Shown: positions 5,085 through 22,497, counted from the stretch's first letter. The stretch: DNA of 45,029 nucleotides from Acutalibacteraceae bacterium (GCA_963597485.1 CAVBQH010000031.1:1-45029); one strand, 5' to 3'. Notes: a model not told the origin generated them from the sequence alone. Numbers and translations: made by a program.

Positions 5085-5113
5085 TTGTTTTCGAACATAT
5101 GTTCTGCTATTAT
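5085..5113 (+). promoter_or_regulatory. SOS promoter with LexA (Cheo) box in the spacer
   Basis: TTGTTT-17-TATTAT with TGn extension; CGAACATATGTTCT at 5092-5105 (GAAC-N4-GTTC). Confidence 0.85.
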
Positions 5114-5120
5114 ATTCTCT

Positions 5121-6656: not shown

Positions 6657-7146
6657 GACAGGTTCTCCTTATGAACAGAAAATCAACGATCAACACAGCA
6701 CTGCCAGGCAGACGAAGCGGTCCGATTTCTCTTATGCGGATATCCTCCCCCTTCCGCATCATGTATCGAAAACGCACCCCCGCATGCCGCAGTCAGAACG
6801 TGCCGCACAGTTTGCACCGTTTGCTGCACTGACCGGCTACGGCGACGCCGTACAGGAATCAGCGCGGCTTACGTCACAGCGCATTGAGCTGGATGAAGAT
6901 GCCAGGGAGGAGCTAAACCAAACGCTCCAGCTCCTCTCCGCTCAGCTTCAGGGCCAGGGCTTTTCCCAGCAAATCCGTGTTACCTTTTTCATTCCGGACA
7001 AAAAAAAAGCCGGCGGATCATACGTCTCTGAGGACGGTACGATCCGCAAGCTTCCTTCTGATATTCGTGCTGTTGTGTTGGAGACCGCCTCCGGCATACG
7101 CAGGACCATTCCTCTGGAGGATATCCTGCGTATAGAGCTTCTGTAG
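6649..7146 (+). CDS. YolD-like accessory protein of the SOS mutagenesis cassette
   Basis: HPRM..ERAAQFAPFAALTGY signature; overlaps the polymerase stop. Confidence 0.8.
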   Translation: MPETGSPYEQKINDQHSTARQTKRSDFSYADILPLPHHVSKTHPRMPQSERAAQFAPFAALTGYGDAVQESARLTSQRIELDEDAREELNQTLQLLSAQLQGQGFSQQIRVTFFIPDKKKAGGSYVSEDGTIRKLPSDIRAVVLETASGIRRTIPLEDILRIELL

Positions 7147-7187: not shown

Positions 7188-8333
7188 TTATCTGTAAATC
7201 CTGGGGATTCGTTTGCCAAGATCGCAGGCAAACTCGTAATTAAACCGGCCGGACAGATCACCCAGCATCTCCAGTGTAATGGACTCCTCACCGTCGCGTC
7301 CAACCAGCGTTACCAGATCGCCGCCCGTTACTCCCGGAATATTGCTGACATCTACCATGAACTGATCCATGCAGACGCGGCCGCAAATCGGTGCCTTCTG
7401 TCCGCGAATCAGAACATATCCCTTATTGGAAAGTCCTCTCGCATAGCCGTCACCATAGCCCACCGGAATCGTAGCCAGAACCGTTTCCTTCTCCGTTACA
7501 TATGTTCCGCCGTAGCTGACCGGTGTCCCTGCCGGCACCGTCTTTACATACGCAACATGCGAATAGAGGGACAGCACCGGCCGAAGCGGCACTATATTCT
7601 GCGGCACCTCCGACGACGGCCAGAGTCCGTAAAGAGTAATGCCTGCGCGCACCAGATCAAGATTTGCCTCCGGGAAGCGAACGATGCCGGCGCTATTGGA
7701 GCAATGCTGCACAGGTATGCGATACCCCAGCTCCGTTTCAATTCGCTTGCAAAAAGCCGTAAACTCTGCGATCTGCCGTCTTGTGTTGGCAGGATCCGTT
7801 TCGTCCGCCTTTGAGAAATGGGTGAAAATACCCTCCACCTCCACATACGGAGTTTCCAGTGCCTTTTTTACAAACGCAAGTCCTTCGTCATCCGGACGAA
7901 CGCCGATGCGTGACATTGCCGTATCCACTGCAACATGGATATGAACAGCCTTCCCGGCTTTTTTTGCAGCCGCTGAAAGCGCCTCCAGCATATCCTCCCG
8001 GAAGCACGCCGGCCGAATTTCCTCCTCTGCCAACTCTTCATAACAGTACGGGAAGGTATATCCCAGAATGAGAATCGGCTTCGTTCTTCCGGCTGTGCGA
8101 AGCTCCTTTGCCTCCTCATAGGTGGCAACTGCATAGCCCCAGACATAATCCAACGCTTCCAGCTTCTCCGCCAGTCGAACTGCGCCGTGACCGTAACCAT
8201 CCGTCTTAATAACGGCAATCATTTTGGTTCCCGGCCGGAGATTCTGATGCATATTTTCCATATTTTCGACAGCTGCCTGCAGATCAATTTCCGCCCAGAC
8301 TCTGTCGTGATGCTCCCACTCTTCGTAACTCAT
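7188..8333 (-). CDS. alr: Alanine racemase
   Basis: AVIKTDGYGHG PLP-lysine motif, VSYGG, GYGDG, GRVCMD. Confidence 0.92.
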   Translation of the reverse strand: MSYEEWEHHDRVWAEIDLQAAVENMENMHQNLRPGTKMIAVIKTDGYGHGAVRLAEKLEALDYVWGYAVATYEEAKELRTAGRTKPILILGYTFPYCYEELAEEEIRPACFREDMLEALSAAAKKAGKAVHIHVAVDTAMSRIGVRPDDEGLAFVKKALETPYVEVEGIFTHFSKADETDPANTRRQIAEFTAFCKRIETELGYRIPVQHCSNSAGIVRFPEANLDLVRAGITLYGLWPSSEVPQNIVPLRPVLSLYSHVAYVKTVPAGTPVSYGGTYVTEKETVLATIPVGYGDGYARGLSNKGYVLIRGQKAPICGRVCMDQFMVDVSNIPGVTGGDLVTLVGRDGEESITLEMLGDLSGRFNYEFACDLGKRIPRIYR

Positions 8334-8437
8334 CGTAACATACTCCCTGTCGCCGAACGCCCGCTGGATCCGGCATCCGATCTTCTATGCAAGACTTCTG
8401 TAGCGTGGCTTTTATGCAAGTATCCCACACAATTCCA

Positions 8438-9601
8438 CTATGCAAGAATTCCGCTGTCTGCAATCGCCTTCACTGCCATTTGAATCCGGTCTGAAGGAAG
8501 TGTCAGTGCAAAACGGACATACCCTTCTCCAAGAGGTCCGAAGCTTTCCCCCGGCGTGCAGATCACGCCGGTTTTATCCATCAGCTCCAGGCAAAAGTCC
8601 ATGCTGGAGCCATGGCCTTCCGGAATCTTCGCCCAGACGAACATGCTTCCGTGACTGTCCGGAACCTCCCAGCCGATGCTCCGCAAACCGCCGCACAGTG
8701 CGTCTCTGCGCTCCTGATAGACACCGCATTGATCCTTTACCATCTGCGTCGGTCCGGTCAGTGCCGCAATGGCCGCCTTCTGAATCGGAAGGAACATTCC
8801 AAAATCAATCTGACCCCTGAGCTTCCGGAATGCCGCAATCACATCCGGACGGCCCACACAGAAGCTGATTCTGGCGCCGGTCAGATTAAAGCTCTTGGAC
8901 AGGCTGAAAAATTCGATTCCAACCTCCGCAGCACCCTCGTGCTGGAAGAAGCTCCCGCCAACGGCTCCGTCAAAAATGATATCGCTGTAAGCGTTATCGT
9001 GTATAAGCAGAATGTCGTATTTTCCGGCAAACGCAATGAGCTCCTCGTAGATGGTAGGGCTCGCAATGCTGCCCGTTGGGTTCGACGGCAGCGAGACGAT
9101 CATATATTTAGCCTTCCGGGCGACCTCCTCCGGAATATCCGAAAGCCTCGGAAGAAAACCTGTCTCCTCCGTCATCGGGTAGTAAAACGGCTCCGCACCG
9201 GCCAGCTGCGCACCGGCAATGAACACCGGATAACAAGGGGTCGGCAGAATCACGGTGTCGCCCTCGTCACACAGGACCAGTCCGATGTGCCCCATGCCTT
9301 CCTCACTCCCGTAGCAGCTGCAGACCATATCGGTTGTGATCTGCACGCCAAAGCGTTTTTCATAGTAGTCGCATACCGCCTGCAGAAGCTCCGGCGTATC
9401 CCGCAGCGCATATTTCCAGTTATCCTGGTCCTTTGCAGCTTCGATCAGTGCTTCCTTGATATGCGGGGCGGTTTCAAAGTCCGGTGTTCCGACACTCAGA
9501 TTGTAGATCGTCCTTCCCTGCTGCTCCATCGCAAGCTTCCGCTCATTCAGCGCAGCAAAAATCTCATCGCCAAACCGGTCCATTCTCTTACTAAACTGCA
9601 T
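8438..9601 (-). CDS. Class I/II PLP aminotransferase (AlaC/MtnE/DapL-like)
   Basis: PSNPTG, DNAY, SLSKSFNLTGARI, GYVRFAL; start at ATG 9601 after GGAGG. Confidence 0.88.
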   Translation of the reverse strand: MQFSKRMDRFGDEIFAALNERKLAMEQQGRTIYNLSVGTPDFETAPHIKEALIEAAKDQDNWKYALRDTPELLQAVCDYYEKRFGVQITTDMVCSCYGSEEGMGHIGLVLCDEGDTVILPTPCYPVFIAGAQLAGAEPFYYPMTEETGFLPRLSDIPEEVARKAKYMIVSLPSNPTGSIASPTIYEELIAFAGKYDILLIHDNAYSDIIFDGAVGGSFFQHEGAAEVGIEFFSLSKSFNLTGARISFCVGRPDVIAAFRKLRGQIDFGMFLPIQKAAIAALTGPTQMVKDQCGVYQERRDALCGGLRSIGWEVPDSHGSMFVWAKIPEGHGSSMDFCLELMDKTGVICTPGESFGPLGEGYVRFALTLPSDRIQMAVKAIADSGILA

Positions 9602-9617
9602 CTCTTCCTCCCCACAT

Positions 9618-9682
9618 CTGCTGATTTTCATTCGTGGTGGTCCCAGCGTACGAATGCAAATTCACGACTGAAATCAGCAGGT
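9618..9682. repeat. Intergenic repeat module Y (imperfect hairpin)
   Basis: CTGCTGATTTTCATTCGTG / CACGACTGAAATCAGCAG arms; 3' part matches 15731-15755. Confidence 0.65.
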
Positions 9683-9710
9683 ACCAACCAACTGCATTTA
9701 CTTCTACGCA

Positions 9711-9740
9711 GAGACAGAGCCACATAAATGGCTCTGTCTC
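9711..9740. terminator. 12-bp perfect hairpin downstream of the liv/CMK-like genes
   Basis: GAGACAGAGCCA-cataaa-TGGCTCTGTCTC; no U tract, so may be a stability stem rather than a terminator. Confidence 0.45.
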
Positions 9741-9747
9741 CAATCTG

Positions 9748-10398
9748 TTATTTGCCCTTATCTTCTACTTCAATTCCAAGGAACAACGGAATTGCTGCGA
9801 TGATTCTGTCCACACAGCCATCAATGCCGTACCGGTACGAATCGAGCGAGATGTCCTCATGCGTGACATCCTTCCAGTCATCTCCCGTATAGTAATGATA
9901 ATACTCACTGCGACGTTTGTCACAATCCCGAATCCGTTTGTTTATTTCACGGTCCGACATGCCCAGATTATCGTGCTTAACCCGCTCTCTTCGGTATTCC
10001 ACAGGTGCATGAATGAATACCCGCAGCACATTGTCCTTGTCCGAGAGCAGATAGTCAGCACATCTTCCGATGATGATGCAGCTTTCGGTCTGTGCCATTT
10101 CCTTGATCACCTTCGCCTGAAAGCTGAAGAGATTTCTCGTGGAAACGTAATCATTGGAGTCCGGCGGAAGGATTTCACCGTTGTAAACCTTCTCTGCAGC
10201 ACTCATCATTTCCCGAAATCCAATCCGCTCGTCCGCTGCACCGAAAAGCTCCTCGTTGATTCCTGATACATCCGAGGCTCTGCGCAGCAAATCTCTGTCA
10301 TAATAGGGAATCCCCAGCCGTTCCGACAGAATCTTCGCAATCCTGGTACCGCCGCTTCCTTTTTCTCTTGCAATCGCAATCACATAGTTTTTCTTCAT
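9748..10398 (-). CDS. Cytidylate kinase-like family protein
   Basis: IAIAREKGSGG P-loop variant, IIGRCADY, VFIHAP, D..R..YY..YTG..W; ATG 10398 with GAGGA SD. Confidence 0.85.
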   Translation of the reverse strand: MKKNYVIAIAREKGSGGTRIAKILSERLGIPYYDRDLLRRASDVSGINEELFGAADERIGFREMMSAAEKVYNGEILPPDSNDYVSTRNLFSFQAKVIKEMAQTESCIIIGRCADYLLSDKDNVLRVFIHAPVEYRRERVKHDNLGMSDREINKRIRDCDKRRSEYYHYYTGDDWKDVTHEDISLDSYRYGIDGCVDRIIAAIPLFLGIEVEDKGK

Positions 10399-10427
10399 CT
10401 CAAAGTCCTCGTCCAAAGCACCTGAAT

Positions 10428-11132
10428 TTATGCTCCAAGGTAAGCCTTCCGCACCCGGTCATCCTCTGCAAGCTCCTTTGCCGTTCCCTCCATGGCGATC
10501 TTGCCGGTCTCAAGAACATACGCACGATCCGAAATGGACAGTGCCATCTTTGCATTCTGCTCCACCAGAAGAATCGTAATTCCGCTCTTATGAAGCTCTT
10601 CAATAATAGCAAAAATTTCCTTAACCAGGAGCGGTGAAAGGCCCATGGACGGCTCGTCCATCAGCACCATCTTCGGTCCCGTCATCAAAGCTCTTCCTGT
10701 TGCGAGCATCTGCTGTTCACCGCCGGAAAGCGTACCGGCCAGCTGACGGCGTCGCTCCTTCAGACGGGGGAAGTGGGCATACACCATCTCCAGATTGTCC
10801 GCAATCTTCTTGCGGTCATTCTCGATATAGGCACCCATATGCAGGTTTTCCTCTACCGTCATTCTGGCGAAAACATGACGCCCCTCCGGTACATGCGAGA
10901 GACCCATGCGAATGATGTTGCTGGCAGGAGTCTTCTGCAGGTTCTTCCCATCCAGCAGAATCTCGCCGGATGCCGCCGGAATAAGACCCGTAATGGTATG
11001 AAGCGTCGTTGTTTTGCCGGCTCCGTTGGCGCCGATCAAAGATACCAGCTCTCCGTCCTTTACCTGCAGGGAAATCCCCTTGATGGCGTGCACTGCACCG
11101 TAGTATACATTTAAATCTTTGATTTCCAGCAT
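10428..11132 (-). CDS. livF: Branched-chain amino acid-type ABC transporter ATPase
   Basis: GANGAGKTT, LSGGEQQML, DEPSMGLSP, VRKAYLG. Confidence 0.92.
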   Translation of the reverse strand: MLEIKDLNVYYGAVHAIKGISLQVKDGELVSLIGANGAGKTTTLHTITGLIPAASGEILLDGKNLQKTPASNIIRMGLSHVPEGRHVFARMTVEENLHMGAYIENDRKKIADNLEMVYAHFPRLKERRRQLAGTLSGGEQQMLATGRALMTGPKMVLMDEPSMGLSPLLVKEIFAIIEELHKSGITILLVEQNAKMALSISDRAYVLETGKIAMEGTAKELAEDDRVRKAYLGA

Positions 11133-11147
11133 ACGATGTCTCCTCCC

Positions 11148-11939
11148 TTACGCACCAAGATATGCCGCGATTACCTGCGGATTGCTTGCAATCTCCTCCG
11201 GCAGTCCCTCTGCAATGGTCTTGCCGTAGTCGATAACCTTTATGCGCTCACATACATTCATAACCAGAGACATATCATGCTCAATCAGGAGAATGGCGAT
11301 GCCGAAACGGTCACGGATGGTGTTAATGCAGTTCATCAGATCCTCCGTCTCTGTCGGATTCATGCCGGCTGCCGGCTCATCCAGCAGGAGAAGCTTCATA
11401 TTCGTTGCCAATGCTCTTGCAATCTCGAGCTTTCTTTGCTGGCCGTATGGCAGGTTGGATGCAAGCCAGTCCTTTTTATCATCCAGGTGGAAAATCTTCA
11501 AAAGATCAATGGCCTTCTGCGTGATCTCATTTTCCGTCTTCCAGAATGCCTTGGTCCGGAAGGTTGCCGCCACAAGGCCATAGGAAATATCCTTCGTAAA
11601 GGCTGCCTTTACATTGTCGAGCACCGTCATATCGTGGAACAGACGAATATTCTGGAAGGTTCTGGCAATACCGGCCTCCACGAACTGGTAGGTCTTCTTG
11701 CCGTTCAAGAGCTGCCCGTTTAGAAGCACCGAACCATCTGTGGGCTCATACACACCCGTCAGCATATTGAAAACGGTGGTCTTTCCGGCTCCGTTGGGTC
11801 CGATCAGACCAACCAGCTCTCCTTCATAGATCTTAATATTAAAGTCCGTTACTGCCTTCAGTCCGCCAAAGGTAATCCCCAGTCCGCGGGTTTCCAGGAC
11901 GGGAGTCTGACCTTCACGGTTTGCTATCTCTTTACTCAT
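11148..11939 (-). CDS. livG: Branched-chain amino acid-type ABC transporter ATPase
   Basis: GPNGAGKTT, LPYGQQRKLEIARAL, DEPAAG, VIAAYLG. Confidence 0.92.
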   Translation of the reverse strand: MSKEIANREGQTPVLETRGLGITFGGLKAVTDFNIKIYEGELVGLIGPNGAGKTTVFNMLTGVYEPTDGSVLLNGQLLNGKKTYQFVEAGIARTFQNIRLFHDMTVLDNVKAAFTKDISYGLVAATFRTKAFWKTENEITQKAIDLLKIFHLDDKKDWLASNLPYGQQRKLEIARALATNMKLLLLDEPAAGMNPTETEDLMNCINTIRDRFGIAILLIEHDMSLVMNVCERIKVIDYGKTIAEGLPEEIASNPQVIAAYLGA

Positions 11940-11958
11940 CTCATTTCCCTCCTGCCGC

Positions 11959-13113
11959 TTATTCCTTGGCGTCTCCGGCCTTCTCTGCCTTTTCCTGCGC
12001 CTTCTTCTCCTTCCAGCTGCGGATATCGCTGCGAAGATTTACCAGCGAGAATTCATAGGTTCCGAAAATTCCTCTCGGCCGGAAGATGATAATGACAACC
12101 AGAACAACCGCATATACCAGCATCGGATAGGTAAACACTCCCTGCAGACCGGTCGGCAGTGCCTTTACCCACGCGCCGTTCTTGATTTCATAGTTCACGA
12201 AAAACATGATGATTGCCGCAACAACCGAACCGGTCAGGGATCCCATGCCGCCCAAAACAACCATGACGACAACGAAGGTGGAATTCAGAATGCCGCCGTT
12301 TGTAAATGCAAAGGAGGACGTCGATAGTGTCTGGTTGGTGCATGCATAGAGTGCACCGGCAACACCGGCAAAAAATGCCGAGTAGGTAAATGTCAGCACC
12401 TTGTAATGAGAGGTGTTGATGCCGGATGCCGACGCTGCAATTTCATCATCACGAATGGCCTTAATGGCACGGCCGTATTTGGAACGAACGAACATGAACA
12501 TCATCGTAACGCCCACGATGGTAACCAGTACGCCAGCCCACAAATATTCAACCTTAGTCTTCGTACCAAAGCCCAGGCCGTTGGCATACAAAGAAGCAGC
12601 CGCACTTCCCTGATCCAGACCGTTCTGCCCGGCAAAGGGAAGGTTGTTGATGATATTGACGATGATCATTCCAAAACCAAGCGTGATAATTGCCAGGTAG
12701 TCGCCCTTCAGACGCAGTGCAGGAATACCGACCACAAAGCCGATCACTGCGGCCAAAAGTCCGGCAGCCAGAATGCACAGAAACAGGATCAGCGTAAATC
12801 CGATGCCGGATTTTTCCTCATATACGCCTGCCCGCTGCAGTGCCAGCGAAATCAGTGCCGCTGTATAAGCACCCACGGCCATGAATCCGCAGTGACCAAG
12901 AGAAAGCTGACCCAGGAATCCAAGTACAAGGTTTAAGGACGCTGCCAGAAGAACCAGGTAGCAGCACTGCCACAGATTCGGCGTCAGTATCAGCTTGAAA
13001 AAGTCGCCTTGTCCTGCAGGAGACGAGCTGATTATGCTGAGCAGAAGGAACAAAACCGCGGTAACAATGGTATTGATCAGATAGCCTTTGGCTGTTTGTG
13101 ATTTAAATTTCAT
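11959..13113 (-). CDS. livM: LIV-type ABC permease
   Basis: GQLSLGH, LRLKGDYLAIITLGF, VLGGMGSLTG, RPRGIFG. Confidence 0.9.
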   Translation of the reverse strand: MKFKSQTAKGYLINTIVTAVLFLLLSIISSSPAGQGDFFKLILTPNLWQCCYLVLLAASLNLVLGFLGQLSLGHCGFMAVGAYTAALISLALQRAGVYEEKSGIGFTLILFLCILAAGLLAAVIGFVVGIPALRLKGDYLAIITLGFGMIIVNIINNLPFAGQNGLDQGSAAASLYANGLGFGTKTKVEYLWAGVLVTIVGVTMMFMFVRSKYGRAIKAIRDDEIAASASGINTSHYKVLTFTYSAFFAGVAGALYACTNQTLSTSSFAFTNGGILNSTFVVVMVVLGGMGSLTGSVVAAIIMFFVNYEIKNGAWVKALPTGLQGVFTYPMLVYAVVLVVIIIFRPRGIFGTYEFSLVNLRSDIRSWKEKKAQEKAEKAGDAKE

Positions 13114-13134
13114 AACATACTCTCCCTGCGCCCT

Positions 13135-14031
13135 TTATACCTTTTCTCCTACGTTTTTGCCAAGCAGTCCGGCCGGCTTCAGAATAAGAACGACAATGAG
13201 AATCAGGAACACGAAAGCATCGGCAAGGCTGGAGCTCACATAGGTCGTTGTAAACGACTCCACCAGCCCGATTACAATTCCTCCGATCATTGCACCGGGA
13301 AGAATACCGATACCGCCGAGAACTGCTGCAACAAATGCCTTCAGACCCAAAAGAGATCCCATCGTAGTATAGATTTTCGGATACTGTGACATATACATCA
13401 GCGCTGCTACTGCGGAAAGTCCGGAGCCAATCGCGAATGTCAGGATGATGGTACGGTTTACGTTGATACCCATCAGGGTTGCCGCTTCCTTATCCTCTGA
13501 TACGCAGCGCATAGCGCGTCCGAGCTTCGTCTTCTGCGTGAACATGTACAATGCCAGCATGACAAGTGCGCCGATCACAATCGTAAGGATGGTTGCCCAT
13601 TCCATGGTAACCGAGCCGATGGTAATGCCGCTTGCCGGGAAGATCTGGCTGGCCACCTTCGGATTCGGTCCGATAGCAGGAATGGCCTGCGCGAGGTTCT
13701 CCAGCATGAGAGACACCGCAATGGCAGTAATCAGTGCTGTCATTGCGGTCCCTTTCTTGCGTACAGGACGATAAGCGATGATCTCTGTTCCCATGCCTAC
13801 CAGCGCACAGATTACAATGGCAGGTATGACAGAGAGCCAGATTGGAAGTCCCAGTGCTGTCATGATCGGGGTAGTAAAAATAATGGCGTAGCCGCCCACC
13901 ATGATGAAATCGCCGTGAGCGAAATTGATCAGACGGATGATACCGTAGACCATCGTGTAGCCAAGTGCGATCAGTGCATAGATGCTGCCGAGTCGGAGCC
14001 CGACGATCAGTGTCTGAATAAATGTGCTCAT
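13135..14031 (-). CDS. livH: LIV-type ABC permease
   Basis: ALGYTMVYG..INFAHG, AAVLGGIG, KPAGLLG. Confidence 0.92.
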   Translation of the reverse strand: MSTFIQTLIVGLRLGSIYALIALGYTMVYGIIRLINFAHGDFIMVGGYAIIFTTPIMTALGLPIWLSVIPAIVICALVGMGTEIIAYRPVRKKGTAMTALITAIAVSLMLENLAQAIPAIGPNPKVASQIFPASGITIGSVTMEWATILTIVIGALVMLALYMFTQKTKLGRAMRCVSEDKEAATLMGINVNRTIILTFAIGSGLSAVAALMYMSQYPKIYTTMGSLLGLKAFVAAVLGGIGILPGAMIGGIVIGLVESFTTTYVSSSLADAFVFLILIVVLILKPAGLLGKNVGEKV

Positions 14032-14091
14032 GCCTTCACTCTTTCTTCGTAGAATTCTTTTAGTTTCCCAGGATCCGATGATGCGATAAAT

Positions 14092-14132
14092 CCGGTTCCG
14101 GGCATTGGAGGCTTTCCTTTGTCCGGAACCGG
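14092..14132 (-). other. Stem-loop between binding-protein and permease genes (partial terminator / mRNA stabiliser)
   Basis: CCGGTTCCGGACA...TGCCCGGAACCGG on the minus strand. Confidence 0.55.
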
Positions 14133-14166
14133 TGTCCTATCAGAGCTTTACTTTCTCTTCCTTGCT

Positions 14167-15408
14167 TTATTCCTCAGGCAGGCTGGTTACAACGTCCAGG
14201 AGCTCGGAGGAAACGGTGGTGCCGTCCGATACGAAGGAAATGATGGATGCACCCTTGGAAGGTGTTCCTGTCTCATCCAGCGAGAAGGTGCCTGTTACAC
14301 AGGTATATACCGCAGAGGTATCTGCCAGTGCATCGCGGACAGCGGAAGCATCACTGCTGCCTGCTCTTTCGATGGCATCCTTATACATGTACACGCAGTC
14401 ATAAGCCAGAGCTGCGAAGCAGATCGGTGTCTCGTTGTACTCTGCCTCATAAGCTTTAACGAAGTTCTGAACAACCTCCGAAGTATCCGAAGAATCGAAG
14501 TGGTTTGTCCAGTAAACCTTGTTGAAGGCGGTGAGATCTGCGCCGTCAACCGTGTAGTCCAGGGACCCGTCGTAGCCGTCAGCACCCATGATGATTCCGT
14601 CATAGCCTGCTGCACGGGCCTGTGTTACAAGGTAAGGTCCGATTACATCGTAGTAGTACGGGCAGTAAACCAGCTCAACACCAGCCTTCACCATAGAAGC
14701 AAACTGGTTTGTATAATCCTGTACATCCATGGATGCGGTGGATTCTACTGCATCTACGCTGACGCCGTACTTCTCGCATGCTGCAGAGAAGGAATCGTAC
14801 AGACCTTTGGAATACGTATCTGCTGCGCAGTATACAACGCCGACACTGGTGTATCCGGACTGCTTTGCATAGGCCGCTGCGATGGCTCCCTGGAAGGAGT
14901 CTGCGTAGCATGCGCGGAACACATAATCATCATCCGTCGTAATGGAATCTGCCGTTGCAGAAGGTGTGATCATTACAACGCCTTCCTCATTTGCAGCGCC
15001 GGTAATTGCGCTCGTGCAGCCGGAGGTTACTGAACCAACAACCAGTCCTACACCCTCTGATACCAGGGAGTTAAACGCATTCAGGCACTCCGTAGGATCT
15101 GACTGATCATCGGTAGTGATGAGCTCGATCTGCTTGCCGTCAATGCCGCCGGCCTCATTGATTTCCTTTACCGCAAGGGTTGCGCCGTTGGTTGCGGCAC
15201 TACCAAAGGAAGCGTATGATCCAGTTTTCGGAGCGATGGTTCCGATTTTAATCGTATCGCCGGAGGAAGTGCTCTCCGCAGCTTCTGCTGTCTCTTCCGA
15301 TGCTTCCGAGGATGCAGAGGAAGAAGAGGATGTGGTGGTGGAGCCGCAGGCAGCCATTGATAATGCGGTAACTCCAGCCAGTAACGCGCTTAAAATTCTC
15401 TTTTTCAT
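14167..15408 (-). CDS. livK: LIV-type ABC substrate-binding lipoprotein (LivJ/K family)
   Basis: MKKR signal peptide, lipobox MAAC, Ser-rich linker, EINEAGGIDGK, YVFRAC; ATG 15408 after GGAGG. Confidence 0.88.
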   Translation of the reverse strand: MKKRILSALLAGVTALSMAACGSTTTSSSSSASSEASEETAEAAESTSSGDTIKIGTIAPKTGSYASFGSAATNGATLAVKEINEAGGIDGKQIELITTDDQSDPTECLNAFNSLVSEGVGLVVGSVTSGCTSAITGAANEEGVVMITPSATADSITTDDDYVFRACYADSFQGAIAAAYAKQSGYTSVGVVYCAADTYSKGLYDSFSAACEKYGVSVDAVESTASMDVQDYTNQFASMVKAGVELVYCPYYYDVIGPYLVTQARAAGYDGIIMGADGYDGSLDYTVDGADLTAFNKVYWTNHFDSSDTSEVVQNFVKAYEAEYNETPICFAALAYDCVYMYKDAIERAGSSDASAVRDALADTSAVYTCVTGTFSLDETGTPSKGASIISFVSDGTTVSSELLDVVTSLPEE

Positions 15409-15464
15409 AATAGTGTCCTCCATATGACTTGTTTCCGGTGATTTACTGCTATCGCCGTGTTTTC

Positions 15465-15582
15465 TTCCTCCGGATACAGAAAAAGCGCCCGACACCCAGT
15501 ATCTGAATGCCCGACGCCTTTGCCGTATTCGGAGGAAACACAAAGAGGTGATCGACAGGTTCCCCTGCCATCACCTCTTTGT
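15465..15582 (-). ncRNA. Structured 5' leader of livK (two long tandem hairpins), no recognised family
   Basis: 19-bp stem with GGAA tetraloop (15540-15582) and a 35-position rod (15465-15537) whose G-U pairs only work on the minus strand. Confidence 0.55.
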
Positions 15583-15594
15583 AATGTAAACTCT

Positions 15595-15622
15595 ATTATA
15601 TTCAGCTTTCTTTAAGCCGCAA
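15595..15622 (-). promoter_or_regulatory. Sigma-A promoter of the liv operon
   Basis: TTGCGG-16-TATAAT. Confidence 0.6.
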
Positions 15623-15625
15623 TGG

Positions 15626-15641
15626 TAATTGTATACAATTA
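15626..15641. promoter_or_regulatory. Palindromic operator, GntR/FadR-like
   Basis: Perfect 16-bp palindrome TAATTGTATACAATTA next to the -35. Confidence 0.6.
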
Positions 15642-15680
15642 TACACTACTTATTTCGCATATTTTGTATGCATGAATACA

Positions 15681-15757
15681 GGTGTCTATTCAGCGCCTTC
15701 CATATTTCAGCGTATCCCGCTGCTTGCAGACAAATTCACGCTTGAAATCGGCAGGCG
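15681..15757. repeat. Intergenic repeat module Y with terminal motif
   Basis: Roughly 80% identical by eye to the reverse complement of 18550-18627. Confidence 0.8.
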
Positions 15758-15775
15758 ATCAAGGAGCGACGCGCT

Positions 15776-16657
15776 TTATTTCGTCACTGCAGCTGCCAGC
15801 GCCTTCAGAATTTCCTGCTCGATCTGAGCCTCATATCCGTCAACATGTGCCACTCTCTCATGTGTAACGCCGTCCACGCTTCCGATTTCCACGGTTGCCT
15901 GGATGTAGCTTTCTACCTTTTGATCCACCGGTACGCCGTCAATAACAGAATACACGGTCTTTCCGGTTGCTCTTTCCAGCGCTGCGGCAATGCCGTAGGC
16001 GCCCCAGTTCGACACGCTGGCCGTCAGCAGAAGGTCTGTGCGAACCCGGCAGGGAACCAGTAACAGATCCTTCGTAATAATATCTGCAAGATTTCCCATG
16101 CCGATTTCATTGCCGCCGTCGCCAACTCCGATGGTTCGAACCCGCTTTTCTCCCTCTGCGGCATCCGGGCCGACAAGCTCAAAAATACGATCCACAGGTG
16201 CCGTGTTTTCCAGAATACTGATCCCCCGCATATTGGCGTAATCGTCTTCTATATTTTTTCCGCAGCGCTCAATGGATATCATGCCGACCGGCTTATACTT
16301 ATCTACCACAGCAAGGCAGGCTGCATCGTCTGCATCCATGGGAAGGTACTCGACATCGATTCCTTCCATTTCAAAGAATCCTCTGCAGAAGGAATCTGTT
16401 ACTACAACCGGGTGATATCCCAGTGCCTGCAAAGCCTTCGCTTCCACCATTGTTCCTGCGGGGCCGTCTGTTTCTGCATATCCAGCTACATAAAAGCCGG
16501 TTGCCAAAAGAACATTTCCCTTTTCCCAGGATAGAATTTCCTCAGCAGCCCTTTCGCACAGATTCTCTTCCTGGTGCTCTCTTAAAACGTGCATTCCTCT
16601 CTGTGTATAGCGAAGAACGATTTCATCCAGGTCTTTGCTGATAAATGTCTCGCTCAT
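15776..16657 (-). CDS. DUF4392 protein (D-glutamate cyclase C-terminal-like domain)
   Basis: TGF..AETDGPAG, ISIERCG...YANMRG, GVGDGGNEIGMG, SVSNWGAYG. Confidence 0.82.
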   Translation of the reverse strand: MSETFISKDLDEIVLRYTQRGMHVLREHQEENLCERAAEEILSWEKGNVLLATGFYVAGYAETDGPAGTMVEAKALQALGYHPVVVTDSFCRGFFEMEGIDVEYLPMDADDAACLAVVDKYKPVGMISIERCGKNIEDDYANMRGISILENTAPVDRIFELVGPDAAEGEKRVRTIGVGDGGNEIGMGNLADIITKDLLLVPCRVRTDLLLTASVSNWGAYGIAAALERATGKTVYSVIDGVPVDQKVESYIQATVEIGSVDGVTHERVAHVDGYEAQIEQEILKALAAAVTK

Positions 16658-17427
16658 TCTGCAATTACCTCCTTAATAGGTACCACATCCACACCCTCTG
16701 CTTCCAATGTCTTTCTTATTCTCTCAGAAAACTGTACCGCCTTCGGGTTGTCTCCGTGCAGGCAGATGGAATCCGGAATAACCTCTATCTCTTTTCCGGT
16801 GATGGCGGTTACCTTGTGCTCCTTCACCATCGACACAACGCGGCGAATAGCCTCCTCTTCATCCGTGATCACAGCACCTTCCTTGGAACGAGCCACCAAC
16901 GATCCGTCCTCTTCATAGGCGCGGTCTGCAAACACCTCTCTTGCGAAGGGAAGTCCGGCCCTCTTTGCTCCCTCGATCAGCTCCGATCCGGAAAGTCCCA
17001 GAAGAATCAGGGACGGATCTACAGCTTTGATGCCCTCACAAATGGCGTCCGCCATTTCCGGATCCTTTCCTGCCATATTGTACATTGCTCCATGGGGCTT
17101 GACGTGCTGCAGCGGAACACCCGCGGCATCGCAGAAGGCCTTCAATGCGCCAATCTGATAGATGATCATTGCCTTTAGCTCCGGTGCGGAAACCTTCAGA
17201 TTCCGTCTGCCGAAGCCAACAAGATCCGGAAAGCCGGGATGTGCACCGACTGCAACCTTCGCCGCCTTGCAGGCCGCTACGGTTTTCTCCATTACAAGAG
17301 GATCCGATGCATGAAAGCCGCAGGCTACATTGGCAGATGAAATGTGTGCCACAACGTCCTGATCCATGCCGATCTTATAATTGCCGAAGCTTTCTCCCAT
17401 ATCACAGTTTAAATCAATCTTCATCAT
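16654..17427 (-). CDS. pxpA: 5-oxoprolinase subunit A (LamB/YcsF)
   Basis: DLNCDMGES, ANVACGFHASD, HVKPHGAMYN, EVFADRAY, ICLHGD. Confidence 0.93.
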   Translation of the reverse strand: MMKIDLNCDMGESFGNYKIGMDQDVVAHISSANVACGFHASDPLVMEKTVAACKAAKVAVGAHPGFPDLVGFGRRNLKVSAPELKAMIIYQIGALKAFCDAAGVPLQHVKPHGAMYNMAGKDPEMADAICEGIKAVDPSLILLGLSGSELIEGAKRAGLPFAREVFADRAYEEDGSLVARSKEGAVITDEEEAIRRVVSMVKEHKVTAITGKEIEVIPDSICLHGDNPKAVQFSERIRKTLEAEGVDVVPIKEVIAE

Positions 17428-17475
17428 GTCCTTCTTTCTGTGAAAAACCTCGATTTAGCCAGTGCATCGATTTTT

Positions 17476-17567
17476 ATCACTGTTCATACTCCATCTCGAT
17501 TTTGATACTCGAAAATACCCGATGGCATTTTCTCCTCGCATTCAGAAAACCAAGGTACAGCTGGCCA
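17476..17567. repeat. Degenerate intergenic repeat (module X)
   Basis: ACTGTTCA..CCATCTCGATTTT and TTCAGAAAACC..GCTGGCCA shared with 18473-18529. Confidence 0.6.
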
Positions 17568-18353
17568 TCAATATTTCAAATTTATATTCTTCACATCGGT
17601 TACAAACATGTGACCCGGTGCGTGTGTGATTACATATTCCGGTTTGGACTGCATAATCACGTTCTGGGGTGTTACGCCGCAGGGCCAGAATACAGGGACC
17701 TCTCCTTCACGGATGGTTACCATATCCCCGTAATCCGGATGCTCCAGATCGGTAATTCCGATCACGGACGGATCTCCGATATGAATCGGCGCACCGTGCA
17801 CTTTCGGCATTGCTCCGGTGATCAGTACAGCCTTCGGCACCAGTGCGTAAGGAATCGGCCGCATGGATACAACCATGTTTCCGTGGAAGATTCCTGCGGA
17901 CTGGCAGGGGATGTTGGTATTGTACATCGGCACATTGCATCCTTCCTCGATCTGTCGTACCGGTACATCCGCCTCCAGCAGATCTCCCTCGAAGGAAAAG
18001 CTGCAACCGATCAGGAAGCTGACCAGATCATCTCTCCAGAACGGTCTTGCATCTGTCACCTCATGAGTCATTACGCCATGCTCATAAACCCGGTACTTGG
18101 GAATATCCGTTGCAATATCCGTGCCCGCTGCGATGCTGTGGAGCTCTCTGCTGCCGACATCACTCACCTCCAGAAGGGGGCAGGCTCTTGGATTTCTCTG
18201 CGCGAACAACAGAAAGTCATACGCTATTTCCTTTGGCAGCGAAACCAGATTCGCCTGTGCATATCCGCGGCACATTCCTGATGTTTCTGTAGTAATAACT
18301 TCCTCCCGGATCAGCTTTCTAAGCTCCGACGGCATAATTGATGTATAATCCAT
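17568..18353 (-). CDS. DUF1445 / YcsI putative hydro-lyase (D-glutamate cyclase N-terminal-like)
   Basis: GYAQANL, RNPRACP, GCSFSFE, VVSMRP, HGAP, FWPCGVTPQ, THAPGHM. Confidence 0.9.
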   Translation of the reverse strand: MDYTSIMPSELRKLIREEVITTETSGMCRGYAQANLVSLPKEIAYDFLLFAQRNPRACPLLEVSDVGSRELHSIAAGTDIATDIPKYRVYEHGVMTHEVTDARPFWRDDLVSFLIGCSFSFEGDLLEADVPVRQIEEGCNVPMYNTNIPCQSAGIFHGNMVVSMRPIPYALVPKAVLITGAMPKVHGAPIHIGDPSVIGITDLEHPDYGDMVTIREGEVPVFWPCGVTPQNVIMQSKPEYVITHAPGHMFVTDVKNINLKY

Positions 18354-18472
18354 ATTCCCTCCTGTCTCATATACCCGCTGTTACAGCAAAAGATTCTCTC
18401 AGCCATAACCAAGAGAATCTTTTCCGCAATGCATCCTCCGCACAGATGCGGCTGACTAAATCAGCATTTAAT

Positions 18473-18626
18473 GTAACTATTCAGCGCCCATCTCGATTTT
18501 CCTTCAGAAAACCTCGATGTGGCTGGCCAAAGGCGCTTCGCGCCTTGGCCGCCTGCCAATTTCAATCGTGAATATGCCTGCAAGCAGAGGGTTCACGTTG
18601 AAATGTGGCAGGTGCTGAACAGATAC
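18473..18626. repeat. Complete composite intergenic repeat with 16-bp imperfect terminal inverted repeats
   Basis: GTAACTATTCAGCGCC ... GGTGCTGAACAGATAC (13/16); three internal hairpins whose modules recur elsewhere in the window. Confidence 0.75.
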
Positions 18627-18633
18627 CATTTCA

Positions 18634-19482
18634 TCAATTCGTAGCTTCCTCAAACTCAGCATACAGATGGCTGCGAATATCCTCCAGCATTTCCGGAGCT
18701 TTTCCACCAACCGGCTGACCGTCCAATGTGTTGCAGTGCAGGCACAGCTTGCTGGAGCTGGTTACCAGAATTTCATCTGCATTCCGAAGAGTATCCAGAT
18801 CATACGGCGTCTCACTTACCGCATAGCCCAGCTGCTTGCACATCCGAATCAGATGCGCGCGGGCGATACCGGGAAGGATCAGCTCATCGGTAGGTGCCGT
18901 AAAGAGCTTGCCGTCCTTAATGATGTGGACGTTGCTGTGTGCACACTCTGTAACACGATTGTCCATATTCTTACGATAGAGAATGGTCTCAACGCAATCT
19001 GCTTCCTTTGCCTTCTCTGCTGCAACGCAGGAGGGAATCAGGTTCAATGTCTTGATATTGCAATGATAGAATCTCGTATCCGGTGCTGTGATACAGGAAA
19101 TCGGTGCAATGCCGTCGCCGATTTCTGCCGGTGTCAGCATAACCCACAGATTGCCGGCTCCCTCCGGGAAGATATGATTGCGCAGCACCTGACTTCCCCT
19201 GGTTACCTGATAATAAACAAACAGATTTCCCGTGTCCATTTTCTTTACCAGGTCATTCAAAAGATCCTTCATCTCCTGCTTGGTTACCGGCATTTTAATA
19301 TCCAGCAGAGCTGCACTGTTGAAGAAGCGATCCACATGCTCATCGATTGCAAAAATATGATAATTGCGGCAAGGGCCTGCATCATACACGCCATCACCAA
19401 ACCAGTGCACGCGATCACTCATCGGGATCGACATGTTCTCGATCTCATCATACTTGCCGTTGTAGTAACCTAATGTTTTCAT
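18634..19482 (-). CDS. dat: D-amino acid aminotransferase (class IV PLP)
   Basis: DR..WFGDGVY, QVTRG, RNH (D-AAT R-x-H), IKTLNL, ILPGIAR; ATG 19482 after GAGGAG. Confidence 0.8.
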   Translation of the reverse strand: MKTLGYYNGKYDEIENMSIPMSDRVHWFGDGVYDAGPCRNYHIFAIDEHVDRFFNSAALLDIKMPVTKQEMKDLLNDLVKKMDTGNLFVYYQVTRGSQVLRNHIFPEGAGNLWVMLTPAEIGDGIAPISCITAPDTRFYHCNIKTLNLIPSCVAAEKAKEADCVETILYRKNMDNRVTECAHSNVHIIKDGKLFTAPTDELILPGIARAHLIRMCKQLGYAVSETPYDLDTLRNADEILVTSSSKLCLHCNTLDGQPVGGKAPEMLEDIRSHLYAEFEEATN

Positions 19483-19592
19483 ATTCTCTCTCCTCTGCGA
19501 CAGTCTGACTTGTTGTTCTACAGAACCATTCCGTAGATATCCACATTCAACCAGCCATTTTTGCATCTGTGCGCTGCCCGCGCCCTGATATC

Positions 19593-19626
19593 AAAAAATG
19601 CCGGATGGGGGCCACCCATCCGGCAT
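19593..19626 (-). terminator. Intrinsic terminator between pxpC and dat
   Basis: 12-bp stem ATGCCGGATGGG/CCCATCCGGCAT followed by a T run. Confidence 0.8.
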
Positions 19627-19649
19627 CCTTGCCGCTCACAATCACTCTC

Positions 19650-19677
19650 ATTATAGTTCCGGCTTTTTCCTTGTCAA
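19650..19677 (-). promoter_or_regulatory. Consensus sigma-A promoter overlapping the pxpC stop
   Basis: TTGACA-16-TATAAT. Confidence 0.7.
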
Positions 19678-20708
19678 CACCCATGCCGATAATAATAATT
19701 GTATTTCTGGAAGCGGTGCCGTCTTCCTTCCTTTCCGCCTTCTGCTCTTGAACGGAATACGAGCTCCGCGCTGCGCTCCTGCTCTTGCGGATTCTGCAGC
19801 AGGAATTGTGCCTTCTCTACACTTATTTTTTCAAAATGAACGCTGTCACCCGGCTTCAGCTGGGCCAGCTTGGGCAGATCAAACGAGCAAACCGTTCCAA
19901 GCTTTGCATATCCCCCGATTGTCTGATGGTCAGCCATCATTACGATCGGCTTTCCGTTCTTGGGAATCTGAATGGATCCAAAGGCAATTCCATCCGACAC
20001 AATGTCCACGCCATGGAGACTTTCTACGCTTTCTCCCTCCAGCCGCATTCCCATGCGGTCGCTTTCTCCGGACACCTTATATTCACTCGCATAGAAACGG
20101 CTCTTTGCCTCTTCCGAAAACCAATCTGCCTGCGGTCCTTCTACAACGCGCACGGTCGGTGCAGTATCAAATTTAACCAGTCGTGGCAGCGCGCTGATCT
20201 TTTTTTGCAAGACTGCAAACTCTGCATCGTCGGCATAATCCGCACCGGAATTCAGCTCATCTCCGGCCTTTAACGGACGACCGTCCAAGCCTCCAAGACT
20301 GCACTTCACATCGGTTGACCGGCTTCCCATTACCAGCGGAACATCAATTCCTCCCGATACAGCAAGGTAGCCTCTGCAGCCGGTTTTGGCCATTCCCATA
20401 GTGAGGCGCTTTTTGCCTTTGACAGAAACTGCCTGATACCGCTCCACCGGGATTCCATCCACGCATGCTCCCATCTCCGCACCGGTAAAAGCAACCGTCC
20501 CTTCGCCCTCCAGGACAGCAGTTATTCCCATCAACGTCATTTCCAGTACAGCTGCGGATTCCTTATTGCCGACCAGCGCATTTGCCAGTCTGCAGCTTTG
20601 TTTATCCATGACTCCGCCTGTCCGAACGCCATATTCCATGTATCCGGCTCTTCCCTGGTCCTGCACCGTAGTCAGTATCCCCGGCATTTCTATTTGTATT
20701 CTCAGCAT
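19674..20708 (-). CDS. pxpC: 5-oxoprolinase subunit C (KipA/AHS2 family)
   Basis: TTVQDQGR, ANALVGN, GSRSTD, DRMGMRL, GSIQIP, DHQTIGGY. Confidence 0.9.
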   Translation of the reverse strand: MLRIQIEMPGILTTVQDQGRAGYMEYGVRTGGVMDKQSCRLANALVGNKESAAVLEMTLMGITAVLEGEGTVAFTGAEMGACVDGIPVERYQAVSVKGKKRLTMGMAKTGCRGYLAVSGGIDVPLVMGSRSTDVKCSLGGLDGRPLKAGDELNSGADYADDAEFAVLQKKISALPRLVKFDTAPTVRVVEGPQADWFSEEAKSRFYASEYKVSGESDRMGMRLEGESVESLHGVDIVSDGIAFGSIQIPKNGKPIVMMADHQTIGGYAKLGTVCSFDLPKLAQLKPGDSVHFEKISVEKAQFLLQNPQEQERSAELVFRSRAEGGKEGRRHRFQKYNYYYRHGC

Positions 20709-20721
20709 ATCTCACCTCATC

Positions 20722-21447
20722 TTATTTCGTTTTCTTCTCGATTTCCGGTTCCCAGTTTCCTGCCTTGATCTTATTCTCAATGGACTGGTATTCCTCCTTT
20801 GAAATCGGTTGGAAGCGAATATACTCTCCGGCATTGCAGAGGATCGGCTTTGCCGCCTTCGGATCATAGAATTTAACCGGCGTTGTTCCTATCAGTCTCC
20901 AGCCTCCCGGTGAAGCAATCGGATAAACCCCCGTCTGTTTGCCCCCGATTCCAACGCTGCCCGCAGGGATAGCCACGCGAGGCGATTCCAGACGCGGTGC
21001 TGCAATTCTCTCATCCATGCCGCCCAGATATACAAATCCAGGCAAAAATCCCAGCATATAAATCTTATAGTCTGTACCTGCGTGAATATTGATGATTTCC
21101 TTCTGGGAAAGACCGGTCAGTTCTTCCAGTCCCTTCAGATCTTCTCCATACTCCCCTCCATAGCAGCAGGGAATAATGCGAACAATCCTGGTTCCGCCGC
21201 TGCTTGCCTTTTTTTCACTTAGGGCCTGTATTTCCTTCACCTTTTCCGAAAGCTCTGAATAGGAAATCCGATTCGGATCATAGCAAACCATCAAAGCCCG
21301 ATAGGACGGCAGCATCTCCTCAACACCTGGAATAGCACTTCCCTCCAGCATTGCCTTCAGCCGCATCACCTGATCATTCACTGCTTCCTCAATGACATTT
21401 CCAAAATCCACCGATATTGCCATGTCACCAACTGGATATATTTTCAT
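20722..21447 (-). CDS. pxpB: 5-oxoprolinase subunit B (KipI/AHS1 family)
   Basis: GFLPGFVYL, PAGSVGIGG.QTGVYP..SPGGW. Confidence 0.92.
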   Translation of the reverse strand: MKIYPVGDMAISVDFGNVIEEAVNDQVMRLKAMLEGSAIPGVEEMLPSYRALMVCYDPNRISYSELSEKVKEIQALSEKKASSGGTRIVRIIPCCYGGEYGEDLKGLEELTGLSQKEIINIHAGTDYKIYMLGFLPGFVYLGGMDERIAAPRLESPRVAIPAGSVGIGGKQTGVYPIASPGGWRLIGTTPVKFYDPKAAKPILCNAGEYIRFQPISKEEYQSIENKIKAGNWEPEIEKKTK

Positions 21448-21479: not shown

Positions 21480-22385
21480 TTACTGTTCCTGTTTGTTCAT
21501 GCTTCCAAAGCAGATTTTACCCTGCAGCCATATGCATCCGCGAAACCTTCTTCCAATCTCCGGCTGTCCGAAAAGATCATCCTGATGTATCAAAACATCA
21601 AGCTCCAGTCCATTACAGTCAACCCGAAGCAAGGTCATTTCTTCCATAGTCAGACAGTTGACCCGTTTTTCTGTCTTTTTTATTTCACCAAGGATGGAAT
21701 ATAGTTCACACTCCGCTCCATACGGCATAAGGTAAGAGTCCACTATGCTGTAAATGTCATCCTGCCGTATATGCTCCATTAGCCCGGCATATTGATCCAT
21801 TTCCAGCGCTGTCAGCTCACGGCTTGCATCCTCATCTCCGCGCTTAGCCCTCCGAAGCCGAACCATCCGTTCTTCATTTTCTTCCTGCAGCAGCTGTATC
21901 TGTTCGTCCGTTTTATATACCGGCATAAGAACGGTTCCTTCTGCAGCCAATGCTGTCAGAATAACACTGGTATTTTCCATTGGAGCAAAGCTTGTATGCC
22001 TGCACTTTAGATACTCCACCGTGTTGCGGAGCCGAAAGATCAAGGTTACTCCTACTCGCAAATCCTCGCAGATTCCCGCGTAAGAATCATTATCAATCCG
22101 AGGCTCTACTGAAATCTCCTCTGTACTGCTTACCTGATTTGTGTTCAGAAACGGATAGTAATAATCCGGATAAAACTGATCATCCTCATCAAACTGTCCA
22201 CAGACGCAAATTCCAAAATCGTCGCCGAAGTTTATTTCAAATTGTGCGAGAACGGTATTCTCATCTTCATCATCCGTTGTATATGCTCTGTATTTGCAAT
22301 CCTTGATACCGGCTTCAATCAACGCCTGGAATTCTTTTCGTTTCAGCGGCTTGGAAAAGCCTATGGCACGCATAAATTTATTCAA
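21480..22385 (-). CDS. DUF3881 family protein
   Basis: MRAIGFS start, PYGAECELYSILGEI, GRRFRG.IWLQG; usual position downstream of serS in Lachnospiraceae. Confidence 0.75.
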   Translation of the reverse strand: MNKFMRAIGFSKPLKRKEFQALIEAGIKDCKYRAYTTDDEDENTVLAQFEINFGDDFGICVCGQFDEDDQFYPDYYYPFLNTNQVSSTEEISVEPRIDNDSYAGICEDLRVGVTLIFRLRNTVEYLKCRHTSFAPMENTSVILTALAAEGTVLMPVYKTDEQIQLLQEENEERMVRLRRAKRGDEDASRELTALEMDQYAGLMEHIRQDDIYSIVDSYLMPYGAECELYSILGEIKKTEKRVNCLTMEEMTLLRVDCNGLELDVLIHQDDLFGQPEIGRRFRGCIWLQGKICFGSMNKQEQ

Positions 22386-22402
22386 TTCATTACCCCATGT
22401 AT

Positions 22403-22440
22403 AAAAAACCTCACCAAAGACTTGTTTCTTCGGTGAGGTT
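22403..22440 (-). terminator. serS terminator
   Basis: AACCTCACCGAAGA...TCTTTGGTGAGGTT then a T run. Confidence 0.75.
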
Positions 22441-22441
22441 C

Positions 22442-22470
22442 ATTCTATACGCTCGTACTTTCCCTGTCAA
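22442..22470 (-). promoter_or_regulatory. Sigma-A promoter for DUF3881 (and possibly pxpBC)
   Basis: TTGACA-17-TAGAAT. Confidence 0.65.
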
Positions 22471-22497
22471 AATGGATTCTATACGATTTACTTTTGC

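Follow-up and report, generated by a model that had tools for sequence, protein, structure and literature searches.

A conserved gene core pairing Dat with DUF4392 and DUF1445 with 5-oxoprolinase, and a tentative route from D-glutamate to L-glutamate

The stretch of DNA analysed here (the window) is the 45,029-nucleotide contig C31 of an Acutalibacteraceae bacterium (GCA_963597485.1, CAVBQH010000031.1:1-45029; genome G000, 93% complete), and our interest lay in the genes between positions 7188 and 21447, all on the minus strand, in which an initial annotation made from the sequence alone had seen a candidate pathway for both enantiomers of pyroglutamate. Profile searches of the window proteins recovered every gene it had named, on that strand and in that order. 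The first two, pxpB (20722-21447; PF02682; TIGR00370, 200.9 against a cut-off of 145.55) and pxpC (19674-20708; PF02626; TIGR00724, 324.8 against 230.2), encode subunits B and C of 5-oxoprolinase, and are followed by dat (18634-19482), whose product was recognised from its nearest structures and motif as a canonical D-amino acid transaminase, a DUF1445/YcsI gene (17568-18353; PF07286, NF003969), pxpA for 5-oxoprolinase subunit A (16654-17427; PF03746; NF003814, 381 against 226), and a DUF4392 gene (15776-16657; PF14336), a homologue of TON_0340 whose start does overlap the pxpA stop, by 4 bases. These six genes are the conserved core. Beyond them lie a livK-H-M-G-F type ATP-binding cassette (ABC) importer, identified by profile matches (10428-15408), a cytidylate-kinase-like gene that had been overlooked and that travels with liv (9748-10398; PF13189), a class I aminotransferase gene (8438-9601), and the alanine racemase gene alr (7188-8333; TIGR00492, 368.8 against 168).

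The stretch is three units, and hence not one simple operon, because internal promoters, hairpins and repeat copies occupy its gaps. The intergenic gaps of 140-370 bases contain a promoter and hairpin between pxpC and dat, a promoter with two hairpins before livK, and copies of a dispersed repeat, all of which had likewise escaped the initial annotation. The repeat, in three of the window gaps, had 192, 47 and 69 other blastn matches in the genome; intergenic copies were placed at 18354-18633, 17428-17567, 15680-15775 and 9602-9750, with up to 192 other matches over 132 contigs.

The six core genes keep together far more than chance would give, and the association of the class I aminotransferase and alr is a local one. 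This was gauged in the genus, in a family survey of 250 genomes (one per genus, each at least 90% complete), and in a set of 80 public loci holding DUF4392, the highest-ranking of 586 by similarity to the query, which may overlap the genomes counted elsewhere; the genomes share kinship, so the counts are non-independent trials. A search of 37 genus genomes located DUF4392 in 12, and in the 11 relatives that were fetched pxpC, DUF1445, pxpA and DUF4392 were always together, accompanied by pxpB save where a contig ended (in G031 the cluster spans two contigs), by dat within the same stretch in nine, at several positions, and by liv in four, while in two genus genomes DUF4392 runs directly into alr. 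The neighbours of DUF4392 in the 80 public loci were DUF1445 (51), dat (24), pxpC, pxpB and pxpA (20, 19 and 17), livK (7), a murD-like gene (6), alr (1) and a distant class I aminotransferase (1). Among the 19 family loci, eight had all six core genes, four had pxp with DUF1445 and DUF4392, six were lone DUF4392 genes, and one was a DUF4392-murL-murD arrangement; this operon type occurs with either of two distinct DUF4392 subtypes (about 25-31% and 46-56% identity). The proposed conservation of dat, DUF1445, DUF4392 and pxp linkage across genomes was thus upheld. So was a recurrent association with the importer, livK also standing beside 4/12 clustered family loci; the nearest structure to its binding protein was 4GNR (174 bits), with NF011933 far under cut-off. 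A sodium:alanine symporter, an alternative to the LIV importer, adjoins dat or DUF4392 in L052, L067, L117 and L125. In G029 (L025:14304-15027) pxpB is in two pieces, a frameshift or an assembly error.

Within the core the co-occurrence is nested. DUF4392 was found in 19 of the 250 family genomes and DUF1445 in 23, all 19 DUF4392 carriers having DUF1445 and four of the 23 having it alone. When 62 chosen family genomes were searched with the window's Dat protein as query, a Dat was found in 18/19 DUF4392 carriers as against 0/4 genomes with DUF1445 only and 1/39 others. In 16 of the 17 regions where DUF1445 lies apart from DUF4392, its flanks carry pxp genes, and at L052, L058, L061 and L067 DUF4392 adjoins dat with neither DUF1445 nor pxp alongside; DUF1445 was located elsewhere in 4/5 genomes having dat-DUF4392 without an adjacent DUF1445. 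Among 14 control genomes DUF1445 matches were obtained in B. subtilis and C. glutamicum, and DUF4392 in none. From this nesting and the split-region counts it follows that Dat accompanies DUF4392 and DUF1445 accompanies PxpABC, and that the first pair needs the second, not vice versa.

The DUF4392 protein is 30% identical to bird GLUCM over the C-terminal half of the latter and retains all six acidic metal ligands of TON_0340 (E62, D64, E130, D180, E184 and D262), which are invariant in 83 sequences, and we regard it as a candidate metal-dependent D-glutamate cyclase. TON_0340, with the same ligands, was described as a probable phosphatase (PMC5132392), whereas the context in the window points to D-glutamate. 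A scan of 97 longer DUF4392 proteins revealed fusions to the MurD N-terminal and middle domains as the largest group, three of them also carrying DUF1445, together with fusions to a methyltransferase, PxpA, PxpC, DUF1445 (in both orders), an Asp/Glu racemase, NlpC/P60 and Alr-N. The MurD fusions include P0027, P0031, P0046, P0057 and about 50 similar proteins, and the two that were scanned, P0027 and P0031, had no match to the Mur ligase C domain. Genes resembling murL (200-272 bits, below the cut-off of 700) also adjoin DUF4392, together with murD, in operons at L054:3237-8236, which additionally holds a nickel-pincer isomerase, L063:9998-13733, L078:5837-10798 and L128; murL-like genes were present in 6/34 family genomes tested. 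Because its neighbours are dat and murL-like/murD genes, and its fusion partners MurD, racemase, NlpC/P60 and Alr domains, the theme of DUF4392 is D-glutamate, and the D-glutamate/5-oxoproline theme first proposed for the locus is supported by the linkage and fusion partners of its core genes.

The nearest structures to Dat are Bacillus D-amino acid aminotransferases, and its canonical specificity motif and Y/R/H carboxylate trap are complete (F27, Y32, A34, P36, Y89-x-Q91, R100-x-H102 and K143), even with a score for TIGR01121, its best-scoring family, of 199.8 bits, under the cut-off of 277.45. In common with the Bacillus sp. YM-1 enzyme (PMC10003956) are F, Y, [VA], [KRPT], xYxQ, RxH and the catalytic lysine; that enzyme differs in having K35, the proposed holder of the 2-oxoglutarate gamma-carboxylate, where the window Dat has Pro. 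A lysine at position 244 of Dat was considered as gamma-carboxylate binder and rejected, the residue not being conserved.

DUF1445 in turn matches the N-terminal half of bird GLUCM at 46% identity; with the bird protein as query, only birds appeared among the best 120 of 719 matches. Cysteines C117 and C225 are present in 184/184 and 182/183 close homologues and in 139/148 and 122/129 diverse representatives, alongside an invariant His/Asn/Gln set, and in an alignment-based model (predicted local distance difference test score 93.9) each cysteine sits at a strand-to-helix junction. In this they resemble the two-cysteine racemases MurI, DapF and proline racemase, whose two conserved cysteines precede helix starts, but DUF1445 gave no sequence match to any of those three families, and no MurI- or DapF-like fold was among the Foldseek/VIA matches listed, which were headed by DUF1445 family structures and NrpR. 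Outside its own family its best structural match was the NrpR domain 3NEK (Foldseek E 2e-6). The fusion partners of DUF1445 in the 120 proteins listed, out of 433 longer ones, were DUF4392, PxpC, PxpBC, PxpA, an OplA-type oxoprolinase, MurD-like domains and DctP, so that it fuses with both 5-oxoprolinase types. DUF1445 is to be counted a candidate two-cysteine 5-oxoproline racemase, which would work via C117 and C225, and this is the weakest step of the scheme described below. As regards PxpABC itself, the three subunits are present and clustered, PxpC passing TIGR00724 and not NF045499; PxpABC paralogues act on other lactams (bioRxiv 2021.12.09.472016).

The leaders of dat and livK brought nitrogen control into the picture. 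A sigma-70 promoter for dat, matching 12/12 consensus positions, overlaps the pxpC stop (19650-19677) and is followed by an ANTAR-like hexaloop hairpin (19622-19633) that overlaps the 5' arm of a terminator (the whole at 19593-19633; z -3.3). In 6/6 aligned genus genomes the promoter is kept with both hexamers invariant, as is the 3-bp hexaloop hairpin overlapping the terminator, with compensating changes. The livK leader (15480-15639) comprises a 12-base palindrome (15628-15639), a promoter (15595-15622) and two spaced hexaloop/terminator elements (15540-15583 and 15480-15524); aligned over six loci, the palindrome core, the -10 box and the second element are present in 6/6 and the first element is absent in L092, while the 10-base core of the palindrome occurs seven times in the genome. 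An Rfam search of the window gave no family at gathering score and nothing meaningful at the dat leader. The dat hairpin matches the ANTAR consensus of PMC3369931, in which ANTAR targets are mostly nitrogen genes, and the likeness to EutV and NasR antitermination extends to the 3-bp stem, the hexaloop A1/G4, the terminator overlap and the nitrogen-related targets, the window genome's only ANTAR gene sitting after glnA. Strict motif matches numbered 112 in the genome, 29 of them with a T run, and the five most stable of the latter precede an ammonium transporter, a glycyl-radical-like enzyme, an amidohydrolase, dat and an Asp/Glu-racemase-like gene, assignments made by eye and, for the last alone, checked beyond that. 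A relaxed motif with terminator, which both window leaders pass, lay before dat in 7/39 loci, livK in 3/14, the PF13189 gene in 3/14 and pxpB in 1/54, on a random-window background of 9/3000. Co-regulation of dat and liv, as first supposed, is thus likely; the ANTAR-like attenuators ahead of both suggest nitrogen control, and with dat and liv placed behind them the route would therefore probably be induced by nitrogen shortage.

The reading that we prefer, tentatively and at a little under an even chance, is that Dat, DUF4392, DUF1445 and PxpABC act as consecutive steps in a salvage of D-glutamate to L-glutamate, the two nested modules forming one irreversible funnel for D-amino acid nitrogen. 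In the first module Dat would pass the amino group of D-alanine or another D-amino acid to 2-oxoglutarate, giving D-glutamate, as expected from the chemistry of its family, and DUF4392 would cyclise D-glutamate to 5-oxo-D-proline at its bimetal site, a downhill step that would pull the transamination. In the second, DUF1445 would convert 5-oxo-D-proline to the L-form, with C117 and C225 as acid and base, and PxpABC would open 5-oxo-L-proline to L-glutamate with ATP, the activity established for its family. In C. difficile 5-oxoproline is used without pxpI, so that DUF1445 is dispensable for that activity. Lactam formation is the favoured direction, and ring opening without ATP is uphill. The mouse D-glutamate cyclase was assayed in the lactam-forming direction (PMC5339696). 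A bolder form of the proposal, which we think possible and rather more apt to be wrong than right, holds that DUF1445 is a racemase of 5-oxoproline with an NrpR-like fold, that the whole is an ATP-driven one-way inversion of D- to L-glutamate, and that the animal enzyme joins a cyclase to a racemase and feeds 5-oxoprolinase, at any rate in lineages (e.g., birds) where both cysteines are retained.

Several observations weigh against the consecutive steps. Cyclase activity has been reported for the mouse fusion alone, at full length (PMC5339696), and a lone DUF4392 was described as a weak Mn phosphatase (PMC5132392). The respective cysteine is missing from 9/148 and 7/129 DUF1445 representatives, and the DUF1445 model superposes on the NrpR regulatory domain 3NEK, a ligand-binding domain, with Z 10.0 and a root-mean-square deviation of 3.9 over 166 aligned residues. 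pxpA was not found in 3/5 genomes with a DUF1445-DUF4392 pair, OplA not having been searched. The motif was encountered before dat in this genus alone, and the upstream partner hairpin that dual-motif ANTAR targets have (PMC3369931) is not clearly present before dat, itself a putative target. Finally, MurI, kept in 17/19 family carriers, would offer a short cut past the route, with the danger of a futile cycle.

The initial annotation had proposed that DUF1445 and DUF4392 form a heteromeric cyclase opening 5-oxo-D-proline, with Dat, Alr and the aminotransferase inverting D-glutamate and PxpABC acting in parallel on the L-lactam. The 19/19 co-occurrence of the two DUFs and their joint presence in 51/80 loci speak for a heteromer, as do their many fusions in both orders and their joint coverage of bird GLUCM; the presence of the aminotransferase in 7/11 other cluster genomes of the genus and the absence of murI in 11/12 fit the wider model. 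A heteromer is weakened in that DUF1445 follows pxp when the genes part and occurs alone, and was not found in 3/5 murL-linked DUF4392 genomes, of unstated completeness; TON_0340, moreover, forms a homodimer whose metal site is complete, and DUF4392 has all of that site within its own chain. Prediction of a DUF4392-DUF1445 complex scored 0.01 and 0.00 and weighs neither way. Consecutive steps are favoured over a heteromer because DUF1445 stays with pxp and fuses with both oxoprolinase types, and the wider model also faces an uphill ring opening without ATP and an aminotransferase-alr pair that is a separate unit, outside the conserved system. We therefore consider the heteromeric model doubtful.

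That pair deserves a closer description. The class I aminotransferase, possibly alanine-forming and a partner of alr outside the core (nearest structure 2X5D), met no NCBIfam cut-off (NF006756, 408 against 507), and its assignment as the LL-diaminopimelate aminotransferase of the lysine pathway was rejected on that score and on the presence of a true DapL on contig C50. It was found in 8/36 relatives, the pair also occurs away from the cluster or in genomes without it, and alr, with a single tblastn match, is the only copy found in the genome. The supposed linkage of alr with the core was not conserved, and of the loop from Dat through Alr to the aminotransferase only the local part stood: with alr and the aminotransferase each near DUF4392 in 1/80 loci, and murI kept by most family carriers, it is no part of the conserved system, yet it is the sole D-glutamate supply that could be recognised in this genome, where it may matter, and can supply D-glutamate in the clade lacking murI.

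Another view of DUF1445, as a ligand-sensing or specificity subunit, for 2-oxoglutarate or 5-oxoproline, that regulates PxpABC or admits the D-lactam to it and has no racemase activity, draws on the NrpR-like fold, the regulatory domain of NrpR being one that binds a ligand, 2-oxoglutarate, and is not known to be catalytic, and on the way DUF1445 stays and fuses with oxoprolinases. Two near-invariant cysteines and an invariant His/Asn/Gln look catalytic, however, and partners as different as two unrelated oxoprolinase types and DUF4392 would be easier to explain by a metabolite in common than by a common interface, so that we find a sensor unlikely. Less probable still would be a bacterial DUF4392 acting on some other small substrate (as a phosphatase, or on another D-amino acid or an acyl-phosphate by-product): the weak Mn-dependent phosphatase activity and RecJ-like site of TON_0340 (PMC5132392) and the many lone DUF4392 copies amid unrelated neighbours would agree with it, but the recurrent linkage or fusion to Dat, MurD, MurL-like, Asp/Glu racemase and NlpC/P60 partners and the GLUCM homology argue otherwise.

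The remaining alternative concerns murI. Searches, including the one the initial annotation had suggested, found neither murI nor murL in this genome (93% complete). In the genus, where serS itself was missed in 8/30 assemblies, murI was present in 1/12 cluster genomes against 14/25 others (one partial). A tree of serS from 23 genomes places the murI-less cluster genomes in a single 12-member clade (support 93/95), so the loss of murI in the genus appears to be one event, not many; the clade includes three genomes without the cluster, Dat and MurL. Loss of murI as a general correlate of the cluster was rejected on the family counts (17/19 DUF4392 carriers against 51/56 chosen non-carriers with murI). 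That the cluster mainly makes D-glutamate for peptidoglycan in place of MurI, for which the genus counts and the lack of murL in this genome, G004, G008 and G018 would speak, is very improbable given the family counts, the cluster-less members of the murI-less clade, a murL-like gene in G011, G019, G159 and G251, and the presence of DUF4392 beside dat in L058, titled as an archaeon, and of many DUF1445-DUF4392 pairs in Dehalococcoidia, carriers not known to have peptidoglycan. Under the preferred scheme of consecutive steps, supply of wall D-glutamate by Dat could be a side effect in the clade without murI.

Other sources of D-glutamate were also noted. On contig C68 of this genome (L001:1047-1775, minus strand) a two-cysteine Asp/Glu/hydantoin-racemase-like gene with an ANTAR-like leader precedes a D-2-hydroxyacid dehydrogenase gene; at 29 bits, under cut-off, it is another possible source here. 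G018 is without such a gene, and the homologue in G008 has an internal stop. For G006, G007 and G033 in the genus and G087, G092 and G107 in the family no murI, Dat or murL-like gene was found, nor in the first three any PF01177 or class IV match (murD was present in G006 and G033), which would reflect either assembly gaps, uptake of D-glutamate or another source of it.

As for precedents, the mammalian DGLUCY/GLUCM (EC 4.2.1.48; PMC5339696) shares both domains and the metal ligands but is one chain, whereas here there are two genes with pxpA between them, amid Dat and PxpABC. The component families are known, and a split cyclase is already in print: for human GLUCM, PMC11580864 lists six split and no full-length gut homologues, with no function given. 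PxpA, PxpB and PxpC are shared with C. glutamicum pxpTABC (PMC13274462) and C. difficile kipOTIA (bioRxiv 2024.05.01.592088) and, together with ycsI/DUF1445, with B. subtilis pxpA-ycsG-ycsI-pxpB-pxpC; relative to known PxpABC operons the window adds Dat, DUF4392 and the ANTAR-like leader, and has an ABC importer in place of an NRAMP-like carrier. Searches of the open-access literature listed no description of a D-glutamate-lactam inversion pathway or of a 5-oxoproline racemase. The latter idea may already exist as an unproven label, since B. subtilis ycsI/pxpI may have been annotated as a putative D-5-oxoproline epimerase, which was not confirmed in re-annotation papers or by search. What this analysis adds is the nested co-occurrence, a separate proposed role for each DUF, the ANTAR-like leaders and the loss of murI in one clade. 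Under the scheme, two widespread orphan families, to which B. subtilis ycsI and both halves of DGLUCY, an enzyme of the human heart, belong, acquire a function open to testing, with a distinct task expected of each half of DGLUCY; if true, it would be a new route of nitrogen recovery from cell-wall D-amino acids and from 5-oxo-D-proline of food or host in gut and marine microbes, and would provide a new racemase scaffold.

Some lesser observations may be added. Many Dehalococcoidia/SAR202 loci (within L076-L110) have the DUF1445-DUF4392 pair amid housekeeping genes with no pxp or dat nearby, and pxpA was not found in the two genomes of this type that were tested. Downstream of the locus, on the plus strand at 5085-7146 of the window, an ImpB/MucB/SamB polymerase gene and a small gene after it are convergent with alr. 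Upstream, at 21480-23787 on the minus strand, serS adjoins DUF3881, as it does in 22/22 genus loci, and the pxp cluster comes next after serS-DUF3881 only in the subclade of this genome.

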